Origin: Podarcis melisellensis
Taxonomy: Eukaryota
Reading direction: 5' to 3' (one strand)
DNA: 64,000 nucleotides
Assembly: GCA_964234715.1 (NCBI GenBank)
Contig: OZ174284.1
Below, piece by piece: positions 29,432 through 53,967 of this stretch (position 1 is its first letter; each line of letters opens with the position of its first letter). The position numbers and the translations under genes were made by a program. The notes under the pieces were generated by a model. That model was not told the origin of the DNA. It saw only the letters and a list, made by a program, of their open reading frames with translations, and ran no database searches.

Positions 29432-30224
29432 GTAAAGTAGTGCCATATATGCAAACATTCTTAAATATTTTTCTTGTGTACTACTGAAATCAGCCCTTCT
29501 TGTCCCTAATTGCTTGGAGCCATTTCCTTCCTCAGGCCCTTCATAGGCATTGTAGGGCATTATGCAAATGTGGGAGAAAGAGAAACCATCACCATTTTGT
29601 TATTGTGATAGCTGCCATTTTGCCTTCAGGATGGAGAGGGGAGGTGACAGACCAGCCAAGCCAGCAAAGACTTTCTGCAAACGGGGGTCATACTAAGAAG
29701 GGTCACGGCTCACAAGTCATTGTTAACCCTGCAGAAGGGTAAGAGGGAGGACTTGGGTAGGAGGAGCTTGACCAACTGTTGGACGGGTTTTCTGGGCCAA
29801 GATTAATGCCATTGGTATTTCTGAGGAGGCGACACATGACTAAAAGGGGTGCATGGAAATATACCAACATGTGACATCAGTTTTAATTGGAAACCCTGGG
29901 GGGAAATGCAGTGTGTATTTTGGCTGCATTGTCCCTTGGAACTGCATTTGTTTAAGATTGCTAGACTGCTTTATGAACTGCTCTTATGAAGGAGAATTCA
30001 AAAAAAACATTTTGGAGTTTGGTTAGGGAAATTCTGTCATCCAAAGAGGTGCGTATGCACAGCTGAACTTGTTCACAACCGTGAAGTGACTTGTCTTTTT
30101 GAATGGTCATAATTTATATTTTTTAATATTGTTTGAGGTGGAGTAATAGGGTATGTTGATAAAGCAGTTTATTAAATGAGTGATCAGATAGTAGAATGGA
30201 GCTTTGGGGGGAAAGAACTTGTAG

Positions 30225-35985: not shown

Positions 35986-36198
35986 GGCTCAGCTCCAGAG
36001 ATTGATCCTTCTGAGAGTTCCAACTTTGGATGGGAAACTAAAATCAAGGCATGGATGGATCGTTATGAGGAAGCAAACAACAACCAGTACAGCGAAGGTG
36101 TTCAAAGAGAGGCACAAAGAATAGCTTTGAGATTAGGAAACGGAGATGACAAAAAAGAAGTGATCACCAGCAACTCAGTCTTCAAACCTCCAGTAGAG
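35986..36198 (+). CDS. KMT2E: KMT2E coding exon 8 (GSAPEIDPS...[30 protein letters not shown]...FKPPVE)
   Basis: TTTAG| acceptor, GAG|GTAAGT donor; 213 nt; overlaps ORF 36055..36348. Confidence 0.95.
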
Positions 36199-36903
36199 GT
36201 AAGTGAAAATACATTCAATGCAACACCAGTCTTTTATAATAACTACATAGCACTCAGATTTTCCATTTCTCTAAGCAGAAACACAGTTCAATATGTTGAT
36301 ACCACATCTCCTGTATTTTTAGTACAGGAAAACCTCCTTGTTTATTGATTTTACATTCTGAATTACTCAACAGTTAATGAGGACCAGGTTACCGGTTATG
36401 ACCATCAATTTTCAACATTTTGAATTTAATTGTCAGATCACTACTGCAGATGTATATTTTCAGCTTTCCTGTTAAAATTTATTTTTTAAACAATGTAGCA
36501 ATTTGAGATAATCTAAATTACTCAAGTCTACCCGCAGAACAGCTGCAATGCCAGCTAAAACCCATCCCTTCCATTGCCAGCTTCCCCACAAAAGCTTCTC
36601 CAGGGGGTAAGGGGGCCTTGCTGAATAGGCTGGACTGTGGTTAGTAGAAAGGGGGATCCCCAAAAAGCACTAAGATACACATTTACAGTTCAGGATGCTG
36701 ATCAATATGTAGCTATACAATACTAAGATGGTTCTGGAATGAGCTGCTTTGTGCCGGGAGGAAGTCCAGACAGTATTTGATTCAGTGCTAGCTTTTAGGG
36801 CTGCTGTTAGATACATGGACATGGCTTCCCTTAACATTATTAACAATTTAAATGTAAATAGGAGAAAATAGACTCTTTTGGTTGCTGTTACCTAGTGGGT
36901 ACA

Positions 36904-37247
36904 GGGACACGGGTGGCACTGTGGGTTAAACCACAGAGCCTAGGACTTGCTGATCAGAAGGTCGGCGGTTCGAATCCCCTCAACGGGGTGAGCTCTCGTT
37001 GCTCGGTCCCAGCTCCTGCCAACCTAGCAGTTCAAAAGCACGTCAAAGTGCAAGTAGATAAATAGGTACCGCTCCGGCGGGAAGGTAAACGGCGTTTCCG
37101 TGCGCTGCTCTGGTTCGCCAGAAGCGGCTTAGTCATGCTGGCCACATGACCTGGAAGCTGGCTCCCTCAGCCAGTAAAGCAAGATGAGCACTGCAACCCC
37201 AGAGTCGGCCACGGCTGGACCTAATGGTCATGTGTCCCTTTACCTTT
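36904..37247 (+). mobile_element. Sauria (Squam1) SINE, near full length
   Basis: tRNA-like head with A/B boxes (GTGGCACTGTGGG, GGTTCGAATCC), ACCTTT tail; TSD TTACCTAGTGGG. Confidence 0.9.
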
Positions 37248-39421
37248 TTACCTAGTGGGGTAGCTTTGCTATGCATTTTTGTATTTTTATGTCTTGGGAA
37301 GCAGTTTAATGATTGCAGTTGCCTCAACTTCAAATTTTTACTCTCCTCTCCTCCACTGTTAACTCCAGTGGAACTTTACACCTGTATTCTGATGCAGTAC
37401 AGTTACTGTCACTTCAACCAAAATTTTAAGTAAGTAATGAAGGCAAAAGCATATTTCTTCCAAAATGTGTTTTTATGTATCAAATTTGCCAGTTACAGAA
37501 TGGAACAAATTACGTTTATGAAAAGAGAAAAACTGCCACGAGTTAACTTTTGATGAAAAATCCTGTTACTTATTATGGAAAGGTAGTTAAGGTTATTTAG
37601 TCAAATATGCCAACTAATAAGTAGGGTTATATTCCTTGGTGTCCTGGGCAGTCCACTTCTTTATTCAGAAAAACGAGTTTAATGATGTGTACAGGAAAAT
37701 AACAAAACAGTGTCCATAGATCTGACTCAATTTGAACAGCTTCCATTTCCTCTTTGATACAATGTTTACTCTTGGTAACACAATTAGCCAAATCATCTTG
37801 TGTGGTCTTGGAAGATCCAGTTTGACTCTTAGTAAAAATAAAATGTAGAGACTGTTTACCCTATTCTTAATTTTTTGTACACATCTTTTAAAACAAAAGG
37901 GAACACAGTCTCTGTCTTTTAAACATCTAGGTATTATAGAAAAATGTTCAAGTACAAGTACTAATTTCTTAAAGTAAAATACCCCTTTAATATATCATTA
38001 CAACTTCCATTCAGAGAGAATATTAATACTTTAAAAGGATACAAATTGGCGCTTTACTGCCTTTACTGAACTTTTAGCCCAAGGAAGCAATTTCTAAATC
38101 CTCTGTTGTTCTGATTATCAGTACACATCTGGCCATTAAATCCTTATAAAGAAAAGTGCATCATCTAATTTAACTATAATATTAACAAGGACAATTATTT
38201 CCAGTATAAACAAAAAGTAAAATGTAAACTACTGTAATCTGTTAGGTACTGTAAATGTCCCAACATTTCCATTTTTCCAGCACCCCATTCTTTACACATA
38301 CTGGCAAATAAGGAGGCAATTTGTATACTTTGTACTCCGTATGCTATACCAGTACGCTGAAAAAGTGCATTGTTTGATCAATGGCAAACATGGAGATAGT
38401 CACATCACCTAATAATGTATAGTTGTTCCATTCATTGTGTGCTTGTGGTTTACCAATGGCCGCCGCTTAAGAACTGACTAGAAAGTTCCTGTCCCTGTGT
38501 GGCTTTTGTACCACCTAGATGTTAGGTTAATCCACCTTGAAAATGTCATGTGGTATTACCCCCAAACCCTGAGCAAATAATTTGTCAGTAGGTTGCAAGA
38601 GAGAGTAGACTACAAAATGGCACCATCAGCCGACTGTCGTGCAGTCTATGGAAGGAATCTGCAAGCTGTTTGATAAATTAATGTTGTTAGAGAGAGACTA
38701 AGCATAAAGGAAAAGTTACATTCTCAGATCTTGTAATAAGAAGCATCTTTGCTTCTTTCCCTCTAGCATCAGCATGGCGCACGTGACGCACTCCTTGGAG
38801 GAATGTCCCTGCTTGCAGAGACCTTCGCCTAGATATAGGCCAATTCTCTTTTGCTCAGAAGTGACACAATTACAAGAGGTGTGAGTTCCTTAGTTGTTGT
38901 GTCAAGAGTACAGTAAGATTTTGCTTAGAAAGGTGTATTCCCACCTGAGGCTATTGAAATGCACCAGAAGTTTCCTTTTCCTAGAAATCAGCATGTTGAC
39001 ATTTTCATCAAAATGCCTTTTACTTGGCATCTGTCCTTCTGCTCTCGCCAGCAGATTAGAGAAAAGACTGCATATTTCGTGTGTTGTCATTACTTGCGCA
39101 CACCAGTTTCTAGCCTTTTTAACCAGAGGGTTTGAAACATCTTTTGAGGAAGGGGTTCCCTAATATACTTTGAAAGACTTGTATTGGTTCTCATTTTTTA
39201 GATACTGTGGTGTCGTTGTTTTCCCCAAAATGTAAAATTGTCTACATAAATATAAGACTGAATTTTATGATAGGAATAAAGTCAATTAGCTTTTAAAAAG
39301 AAAGAATATCATTGAAATTACCAAGTTGCTCCTTAAAGTTGTATGTTATAATCTGGTTTCTTAATAGCACTAATGCAATCAGCTTAATTAGATTTCTTAC
39401 ATTTTTCTTTTCTTCTTCTAG

Positions 39422-39586
<165 letters not shown>

Positions 39587-40927: not shown

Positions 40928-41892
40928 TACAAATAAAGAACACAAGCCAGCAATCTACCTAGCATCATAAGTACCTGCAGGAAAAGGAAACTATTCAGTA
41001 AAAACAATTCCAGATGAGGTATTCAAATATTCACAGGAAATCTGAAAAGAAAAAGATCCCACCAAGGGTTAACAGCCAGTCTGCCCTAAGAGAAAAAAGA
41101 ATAATCCTAAATATGGCAATTTGAGTTATTGTGAAAGCAAGCTTGTGCATTAATATTCTCTAATAGACCTTGCCAAGGAAATGAATTGTCCCCATCAAAT
41201 ACCCTCTCTCTACTTCTGGGTGTCTGATTATATCTTGGATGATGACCAGGAAATTTCTGAAAGTTTGGGATTCTTTTTGCACTCAGTACAGCATGGCTAA
41301 ATAGGGTCACTATTTTAAGAACATTTAATTAAAAGATCAAGCCAGCTTTAAGATCAAGGCAACATCATGCCAATTTTAATTATGGGAAATCCTTGTAGTT
41401 GCATAGTAAATCTAAAAAGCAATTTGTGTGCCTGATTCAATAATATTTGTTTCTACCAGCTGGAAATGAAGCTTGTTTACTCAGAAGGAAGTCCTTCTTT
41501 GTTCAGTAGGACTTACTTCAAATCTGCATAGGATTGCAGTCAAAGAGGAGATCAGCTAACATCTTGAAACACAGGAGAAATTCAACATTGTGCTATTGCA
41601 AACATTCCATCAGTGGAAGGATTTCTGCTTTCCCAGTGGAAAAGTCTCTCTTTTTCCTCCTCATAGACGCTGTTCTGGGGCTTCCCACAAACCCCAGCCC
41701 AATTTTAGGGGTGCGGCAGGGTGACAAGAGTGGGAGAAGTCCTTTTATGGGAATTTGCTATTGTTGACAGATAGCTCAATCCAGCTCACAGAAACGTATT
41801 TCCCTATTTTTTCAGAATTTTCCAAATGTTGAAAAAGCTAATTTATATGCGTTTAATGTCACAGTGGTTATATGTCTTTGCTGGTTTTTTAA

Positions 41893-42111
<219 letters not shown>

Positions 42112-51226: not shown

Positions 51227-53967
51227 GTAAATGTATTTCTAAGCTTAAACTGATACTTTCATTTGCGTATTAAATGTCTGCTGTGATGTTCTTTGCAAAG
51301 CAGCTCAGGGCAGCATTTAAGCAGGAATATACTGGTTATCAGCTCTGTTTTGGGATGAGGAGGAGGAGGGAGTGGCAATGGTTTCTTGTTTGAGCAAGCG
51401 CAGTAATGCAGGGGTACCACAAGAAGACCTTGTATGGTTCTGAGATGCATTATTTAAAGAAGGCAAGCGTGCTTTCTTCCTCTTGTACACTCACTTCCCC
51501 TAGGAAAAATAGGGAGGAACCTGGATACTAGAAGGTAGAAGATGAGACTGAGTCTCTGGTAGGAAACCTTGGGTAAGGATCAGGGGCCCCTGTTAACAGG
51601 AGGGGGCCCCCACCCCCCCATCCAAGACACCAGAATGCCATCATGAGATGGGTAAATAGGGAGAGGTGCAAGACAATGGAAAGACCTCAAAAAAGCAACA
51701 AAATATGTTAAGGTAGGTCTTCACAAAGGCCCAAGAAACATAAGTGAAGACCTCTGGGTGGTGGGACTACTCCATCTCCAATGCTTTTGGGTAGGGAATG
51801 CTGACTAAATTTTTGAAGTCAGAAAATGAAGGGAAGGCTAAAAGGTCTCCGTAATTCCTCATACCTCCCAGGAGTTACCCTCCTATCTAGGAGAAGTGAA
51901 TGCAATGACTTTCAGGGTAGGGAGGATCACAACACTGAATTATTGCACCTTAAGGGGCATGCGTCATGATTTGAGTGTCTGTCTGCAAGCAGGAACAGTT
52001 GACATCTCTTATTTTGTCCTATAGGATGCATCTCCTGTGAGGAGTCCTAGGTCTGGAGTTTGCCTTCCACTGAGAGGGAGAAAACACAGCATAGGCCTCC
52101 CTGTGAAGATATTGAAAGAGTTCATGTTAGGCTTTTTCTGTGAAACCGTAGGCCATGGCATGGTTAACAGTCAGTAGTTTTCTTGGGTTGGGTTTGCTTT
52201 CAGTTGCTGCTAGCTTGGAAGGAAATAGTGATCTAGGTGTCACAGAAATAGAGCCAGTGCAGTAGTCATTGTTCTTCAGCGCTTCTTTTCCACTAAGTAG
52301 AAACAAAATCCTAAAAAAGGAAATGAAAGTTTGTGGCCATCTTTTAACTGCGGGATTGCTCCAGTTCAGTGCATGCAGCGCATCTATGGAGGGGTTTCTA
52401 TCGTAGTCTGGTTTCCCTCTTCCTCTGTGGTACATATGCATGGATGTTCAGCATACCTGAGCATTCCGGGAAGCCTATATCCCAGTCCAGCCTCTCCCTT
52501 CTCAATTCATTCAGGGAACACATTCCTTGCAGCTCACATTCCTTGACCAGAAGGATGGGAAGGGCTGGACACAAATTTGTGAGGTATGTCTCCCATTCCC
52601 TATAATGGCCGGGCATATTCTTTTGTGTGCATGCCACCAGCTGTAGATTTATTGTTTGTTATATTTTTATTTTTATCCTGCCTTTCTGTGTAAGGCAACT
52701 AACAAAAACAAAACTGTTAAATGAAGTGAATGCAGCACAACAGCACAGCAATATTAAATAATGCAATATTACCAGTAAATAATAGGTAAGGATTCTGCCA
52801 TAGCACCAGAGGCTCTCTGAATTAAGAGGGGGCTTTCATCAGAAGACCAGAGAGAAATAGGCAGGCTTCTCAAGGAGAGAGTTCTAGAGCCCGGAGTAAC
52901 AACCGGGAAATATGTTTCTGATGTTTACAACAGCAGCTACATACAGAGAGCATGTCACAGTAGCCCAGTGTGGATATTAACAAGGCTTGAGTAATGTAAA
53001 TGGAAAGGGTGGTCTATTCCTGGTCACTGCTGCCACCTGAACAGCTCCAGGAAACTCCCGTTTTTAAATTCAAACTTTTCTTAAGATAACGAAATTGATT
53101 GGAACTTCAAGAGAGGACAGGCTGCTTGATCCGGCTCAAACAGTCCAATCCTGTTCACATTTACACAGAAATAAGTCTCACTGAATTAAGAGTGTGCTTT
53201 AGGTTGCTACCTCAGTGAGCAAAGAATGGCTGGGCTTGTGTGTGGTAAAAATGGTGACACCCATTAGAAAAAAACATAAGGGAAGGCTTATTCTACAAGA
53301 ACACCCCGCCATCCTGCATGCATTTAGACAGAAAAACTTAGGAACGAGTAAATTAAAAAGGATTGCTGATGCTTGTAGTACACACATCACTTAGTTTAAG
53401 AATGCAGGTTGTTTCTCAGTAGCATTAGCAAAAAAAGCTGACATCAGCCTCGCTGACTACAACTTTTAAACAGTGGCATTTTACCACAAATTTACCACTT
53501 TCTAGGATTTGACAGCAAATCAGCTCTTACCGTCTAGTATATTTTACCTTGACACAGCAGCCATGTCTACACAATTAAATGCTGGTTTAATAAGTCAGAA
53601 TACGTATGAGCTCTGTGTACCCACTCACAATTCTTTCCTGTGAGCAGGGAAACAAGCCAGGAACCCCCAGTTTCCCCATTCGATCAGGAATTAAGGTTAA
53701 TGGCTTTCAAACAAGCTCTGATGCAAAGCCATGGGTTTAAAGTGGCTTACAAACTTGCTTGTTTAGAAGTCATTAACCTGATTGTGCAAACCTGGTCAGT
53801 TACCTGGATTACCAGTGAACCTATAAACGGTGTATCTGTGTGCAGTTACAGCTTCATTAGTTACCATAGTATTTGCACTCTCCCATAGTACTGAACATGG
53901 TCTTAATGTACAGTTGATAACTACCTTCAGCAGAAGGGCTATGTTGACTTTTCCCTTTTCTGTTTAG

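Follow-up and report, generated by a model that had tools for sequence, protein, structure and literature searches.

Conserved poison exons of KMT2E and of its paralogue SETD5 are short intronic exons that carry an in-frame stop and a conserved upstream flank within a dose-sensitive chromatin gene. In human KMT2E, NMD exons have been mapped to chr7:105064028-105064116 and chr7:105108544-105108658 (PMC7347940), and a poison exon is placed in intron 21 only (PMC11925151). Several cycloheximide-responsive NMD exons are described for SETD5, and the KMT2E events found in the accessible part of the same source are either frame-preserving or restricted to the 5' UTR (PMC13078869). The accessible part of PMC11632617 contains no KMT2E event, and an NMD-predicted KMT2E event reported from human cells, with its location not given (10.1101/2022.12.06.519414), could bear on the element described here. 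KMT2E is, in the sources consulted, a chromatin reader and not a known splicing factor; its PHD finger reads histones, its SET domain is inactive and it binds NCoR/HDAC3 (10.64898/2026.09.20.752984). Other alternative products of KMT2E/MLL5 are MLL5alpha, MLL5beta, NKp44L and vMLL5, which keep the N-terminus with the PHD finger and lose or change the C-terminus (PMC9973269). In the lizard Pogona vitticeps, proposed intronic starts with a strong-context in-frame ATG yield N-terminally truncated forms of the chromatin regulators jarid2 and kdm6b, which lose an N-terminal module and are marked by a sharp, temperature-dependent step in read depth (PMC9020659); kmt2e is absent from the two supplement files of that study. 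Further context is provided by PMC5892948, PMC9359700, PMC7935518 and 10.1101/566091. In the literature searched, neither the present element nor a KMT2E that lacks the PHD finger and opens at the SET exon was described.

In this work, we analysed a 64,000-nucleotide stretch of the genome of the lacertid lizard Podarcis melisellensis (contig OZ174284.1; hereafter the window), whose exons, when translated, encode KMT2E. Coding exon 8 is identical to Podarcis raffonei KMT2E, and most window exons are 90-100% like that protein. The element under study lies in the 3,223-nt intron that leads from coding exon 8 to the first SET exon. In human KMT2E, exon 5 contains the HCF1 motif together with the first part of the PHD finger, and exon 10, a 77-residue in-frame exon, precedes the SET exons (PMC11925151, supplement 1), so that the host intron of the element corresponds to human intron 10. 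The exon numbering of the original prediction, with coding exon 8 at 35986-36198, was right. The element resembles the conserved poison exons of KMT2E and SETD5 in its length, intronic position, in-frame stop, conserved upstream flank and dose-sensitive host gene. It differs from the published human KMT2E NMD exons in place, since these lie in intron 21 and, for chr7:105064028-105064116, presumably in intron 5, and in reach, since the evidence for it is limited to lacertids and possibly squamates. As in Pogona jarid2 and kdm6b, a strong-context in-frame ATG stands in an intron of a lizard chromatin regulator, although no step in depth was seen here. The product proposed for the element would be the opposite of the four MLL5 products named above. 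The features concerned are the following.

35986..36198, + strand: coding exon 8 of KMT2E (human exon 10), the upstream constitutive exon, phase 0; residues 257-327 of protein P0001
38640..38878, + strand: conserved block, acceptor region plus element; 0 differences over 38640-38876 against run X1
38733..38766, + strand: candidate branch point (-31), polypyrimidine tract and AG acceptor; 10.3 bits
38767..38878, + strand: exon-like element of 112 nt, or of 114 nt if the second donor is taken, from sequence and donor use
38774..38878, + strand: 35-codon frame, open from a strong-context ATG and continuous with that of the SET exon
38780..38788, no strand assigned: candidate CpG-containing E-box with overlapping CRE-like half site, from a pattern count
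38830..38832, + strand: premature TAG in the exon 8 frame; the used donor follows 46 nt later and many junctions lie beyond
38879..38884, + strand: used donor with GT at 38879 (joint 38878>39422) and a second possible GT at 38881
39422..39552, + strand: first SET-domain exon (human exon 11)

All coordinates given in the original prediction, namely the acceptor, the ATG, the TAG, both donors and the 35 codons, were found to be correct. Read from coding exon 8 (phase 0), the element provides 21 codons ahead of the in-frame TAG (38830-38832), whereas the ATG at 38774, which has A at -3 and G at +4, opens a frame of 35 codons that runs to 38878 in frame with 39422. We scored the splice sites with weight matrices built from the 22 acceptors and 23 donors of KMT2E itself. 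The acceptor before 38767 reached 10.3 bits, above 16 of the 22 real acceptors and within the top 0.5% of intronic AGs (equalled by 9 of 2,012). The 38878 donor was middling (5.8 bits, equalled by 62 of 1,727 intronic GTs) and the 38880 donor weak (1.3 bits, on the small 23-donor matrix). As a pair, acceptor and donor ranked 15th among 647 pseudo-exon candidates, 14 of which stand higher by splice scores alone. An in-frame stop is expected by chance, being present in 3,488 of 3,924 intronic segments of the same length (89%). Of 62 comparable donors, 18 have an open in-frame ATG ahead of them and 6 have one in strong Kozak context, and a frame of at least 30 codons was found once, in the element itself. 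Thus, the stop and the strong-context ATG, taken alone, are weak evidence for a real exon, and the combination of two frames is by itself unremarkable. The element had also been described as CpG-enriched and not repetitive. The former stands with a qualification, as 4 CpG in 114 bases compare with 17 in the 2,762 bases that remain of the intron once its SINE is removed (Poisson p 0.006), yet 13 of 240 intronic tiles equal it; the latter was confirmed, since the element is single-copy in its own 1.57-Gb genome, which rules out a repeat origin. Motif names in this region (E-box, CRE-like and, at 38614-38621, YY1-like) are those we take to fit; by pattern count, 38780-38788 holds the sole 8-base E-box of its kind in the window. 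The YY1-like site adjoins the conserved block. Folding of 38640-38900 gave no sign of RNA structure (z -0.82), and Rfam matched nothing in the element, its one sub-threshold match falling outside. A coding extension of exon 8 to the distal donor was ruled out by a stop at 36346. Altogether, the sequence features by themselves exceed chance only moderately, and the reality of the element is carried by the RNA joint and by conservation.

The RNA sample comprised seven distinct runs among 18 that were guessed to be RNA, examined as assembled contigs, in which rare forms are lost, one contig does not equal one molecule, and depth is a poor measure. The original prediction had the 38878 donor joined to the SET exon, and this joint (38878>39422, GT..AG) was indeed present, in one contig of X1, a relative's presumed RNA, and thus in one of the seven runs, at depth 5.18 and with 28 letters on the short side. 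Between 38365 and 38878 the same contig is unspliced, also at the acceptor, before it joins 39422. The normal junction 36198>39422 was found in all four runs of one set (depth 58-152), and the three other presumed-RNA runs showed it as a loose end matching exon 8. The acceptor site is covered by three of the seven runs (X1, X3 and X4), the contigs of which cross it unspliced, and the 38878 donor by X1 alone; X2-X4 do not cover the donor, nor X13, X17 and X18 the element. Among the joints listed, 36198>38767 occurred in none of the seven runs, and no loose end at 38767 was among those listed. Use of the 38880 donor was not seen in the single run that covers it. From base 36199, where the intron begins, its cover in X1 is flat at about 4-5x, also in a piece downstream of the donor, and the spliced contig stands at 5.18x, so that this run contains nascent RNA or RNA with the intron retained (or DNA); no step in cover was visible at the element, within the limits of contig depth.

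Comparison with the same relative pointed to constraint. The 237-base block 38640-38876 shows no differences from X1, whereas the rest of the intron differs at 59 of 1,700 positions (3.5%), and in the 512-base X1 contig the 12 substitutions, like the 12 gap letters, are all confined to 38365-38639. The probability of such a block is 0.0002 as drawn, 0.015 when corrected for choosing the longest run and 0.02 for the exon alone, all from one pair of species; the comparison ran as far as the donor. The contig of X4 over 38605-38789 has 2 differences (X1 over the same span: 2), and that of X3 over 38560-38787 has 5 (X1: 4). On these alignments, the exon and its upstream flank appear to be conserved within lacertids. 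As the block starts 127 bases before the acceptor and 134 bases before the ATG, the constraint is not on the peptide only. Beyond lacertids the comparison was negative. The original prediction had suggested looking to SETD5, the matching intron of which is about 420 nt long and unrelated (best match E 5.1), and to vertebrates at large, for which no matching isoform occurred among the non-squamate models sampled. In the accessible parts of the human and mouse NMD-exon catalogues the element was not recognised, the published exons being placed, in part after a review (PMC11925151), presumably outside intron 10. The teleost kmt2e intron (611 nt, L002) offered only a 12-base match. This exact match, L002:2588-2599 to 38827-38838, covers the stop and lies 87 bases from the fish donor, with uncorrected shuffle p values of 0.008 (exon) and 0.037 (block); the best match of the whole intron lies elsewhere (p 0.245), no fish acceptor is evident, and we treat the 12 bases as probable chance and not as homology. 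A repeat-derived exon of Zootoca, tried as a control for neutral drift, had no match at the orthologous place.

The junction 38878>39422 is already in automated annotation. Two RefSeq models, XP_033018066.1 of Lacerta agilis (X6) and XP_060135523.1 of Zootoca vivipara (X7), start with the element peptide (35/35 and 34/35 residues, respectively) joined to the SET exon; being automated predictions, they record the junction and are silent on mechanism. They were the only two proteins with this N-terminus among the 302 KMT2E-related proteins sampled (15 members per cluster, which for the bird cluster means 15 of 902). The 35/35 and 34/35 identities have probabilities of 0.007 and 0.047 under an assumed neutral drift of 7%, and of 0.09 and 0.31, not significant, at 3.5%. 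A protein search with the peptide returned no match at E<=10, because both RefSeq isoforms sit inside the full-length cluster; two matches among the 50% representatives were rejected, both being repetitive proteins. Pfam found the SET domain and no PHD finger in the isoform, which from residue 35 onwards matches the solved SET domain 5ht6. Hence, the PHD-less KMT2E starting at the element that had been proposed exists as an annotated form with an intact SET domain in two other lacertid genera, its translation from 38774 being a prediction. The peptide of the poison frame occurred in 0 of the 302 proteins, which is weak counter-evidence, as it is expected for NMD targets.

A related pattern extends to other squamates. 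Among 267 long SET-containing proteins sampled, 11 start at a methionine inside the SET exon, which cuts away part of the SET profile (Pfam). Ten of these are RefSeq models from nine squamate species (geckos, a cordylid, anoles, an agamid and snakes), and the eleventh is a Logan protein in a turtle cluster that may be a fragment. In addition, one snake model starts slightly earlier within the exon. No such start was found in bird, mammal, turtle or crocodile RefSeq models within this partial sample. A start of this kind requires an event located after the exon 8 methionine and ahead of the SET exon and providing no in-frame ATG, and these models thus fit an upstream event without a usable ATG, which in the nine squamates is, we infer, the same exon as the element. 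Given these starts, the 35-residue peptide looks lacertid-only. Another 19 models, spread over the amniotes, begin with the first methionine that follows intron 5; they look like the same signature, and they probably sit where a published human KMT2E NMD exon lies. In automated annotation, an unproductive transcript is assigned its longest remaining frame as coding sequence.

Taken together, these results show a real, lacertid-conserved, low-level splicing element. We consider that it most probably acts as a lineage-restricted unproductive (poison-type) exon diverting a minority of KMT2E transcripts, a reading to which we give a probability of about one half. According to it, the downstream intron 38879-39421 would be removed first, and two products could follow, namely a transcript that retains the upstream intron, with its first stop at 36346, and, if the acceptor is used, a 112-nt cassette with its stop at 38830. 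For inclusion, all later junctions lie beyond the TAG at 38830-38832, farther than the approximately 50 nt of the NMD distance rule. Both products would have a premature stop ahead of many junctions and are predicted to undergo nuclear detention or NMD, so that the dose of the haploinsufficient KMT2E would be trimmed; the RefSeq isoforms from 38774 would then represent the longest frame left in an unproductive transcript and not proof of a protein. This reading is favoured because the conserved block covers the branch point, tract and acceptor and starts well before the ATG, because a strong acceptor stands 112 nt before the used donor in a region where contig depth shows no step, and because the other squamates seem to be without the ATG frame. 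The parallel starts after intron 5 and the NMD exons of the paralogue SETD5 also agree with it. Against it speak the absence of 36198>38767 among the joints listed for seven runs and the unspliced acceptor in X1, X3 and X4, the nature of the donor evidence (one contig with a short side of 28 letters from a run guessed to be RNA, and two automated models), and the long strong-context ATG frame with its E-box, which fit a first exon better. Of the poison exon originally predicted, the donor spliced to the SET exon, the in-frame stop and lacertid conservation were thus recovered, while the acceptor junction was not; its autoregulation by the KMT2E product found no support.

It is possible, though we hold it to be the less probable explanation, that the element is an internal first exon, with an intronic promoter in the conserved block, splicing 38878>39422 and translation from 38774. 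The resulting protein of about 1,540 residues would be devoid of the HCF1-binding motif and the PHD finger and would have the whole SET domain and the C-terminal region. Such a form would be unable to read H3K4me3 and might act as a competitor for NCoR/HDAC3. The donor side being alone seen spliced, the two RefSeq models being exactly this protein, the near-identity of the peptide across three genera, the unique length of the ATG frame among 62 comparable donors, the motifs in or beside the block and the precedent of Pogona jarid2 and kdm6b all agree with it. However, contig depth shows no rise in cover at the element, within its limits as a measure, and the contig continues unbroken back to 38365, ten ATGs upstream of 38774 on that contig are all closed, and a first exon has no need of a strong acceptor. 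Furthermore, the models of nine other squamates have no upstream in-frame start, the peptide has no relative outside lacertids, its conservation is explained equally by nucleotide constraint, and the motifs were chosen after the fact. First-exon use may also coexist with poison use. The fuller proposal of a squamate hybrid exon, acting as a poison cassette from exon 8 and as the first coding exon of a KMT2E lacking PHD finger and HCF1 motif from its own E-box promoter, we regard as improbable. If true, lizards would switch between lowering KMT2E and making a form blind to H3K4me3, and the choice might depend on tissue or temperature, as truncated jarid2 and kdm6b are reported to do.

A further and rather unlikely explanation is that the block is a conserved DNA element, such as an enhancer, or a region slow by chance, with a cryptic donor in low, unregulated use in nascent RNA that has no effect on output. 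The 14 pseudo-exons of KMT2E with better splice scores, a joint of the same depth as the unspliced intron pieces and a corrected conservation p of just 0.015 from one species pair are compatible with such noise, but the same junction was modelled independently in two other genera and the block spans the acceptor and ends, as far as cover goes, at the donor. In a variant of this explanation the element would be a stepping stone in the removal of the 3.2-kb intron; such a re-splicing site would require a donor immediately behind the AG, where none is present, and a recursive splice site was therefore ruled out.

KMT2E is dose-sensitive, and in lizards chromatin regulators are spliced and truncated in unusual ways during responses to temperature. 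The unproductive exon proposed here, if true, would be an extra dose control on KMT2E restricted to a lineage and an example of how such exons arise, and the PHD-less isoform, if real, a natural test of KMT2E function without its histone reader. As no human counterpart was found, medical relevance is low.

Several other observations were made in the window. Within the host intron, 36904-37250 is a high-copy, CpG-rich SINE-like repeat (19 CpG) matched by thousands of contigs, and at 36199-36213 Rhineura models lengthen exon 8 by five residues, as if from a donor 15 nt into the intron. The acceptor of the second SET exon (41880-41900) has no AG in the assembly, the first G at 41898 being preceded by CT, and contigs in four of four runs nevertheless join this exon directly to 39552; an assembly error, a variant or a non-canonical site may be responsible. 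The segment 43560-50339 is without a readable exon for P0001 residues 536-568, a segment skipped by several RefSeq isoforms. A second candidate poison exon, with an acceptor of 7.4 bits and a donor of 7.3 bits, lies at 29630-29738 in the counterpart of human intron 5, ahead of the methionine at which the 19 amniote models begin; the human NMD exon chr7:105064028-105064116 may be its equivalent. Finally, 51872-51916 is an in-frame alternative exon of 15 codons, identical to the insert of four Zootoca RefSeq isoforms.
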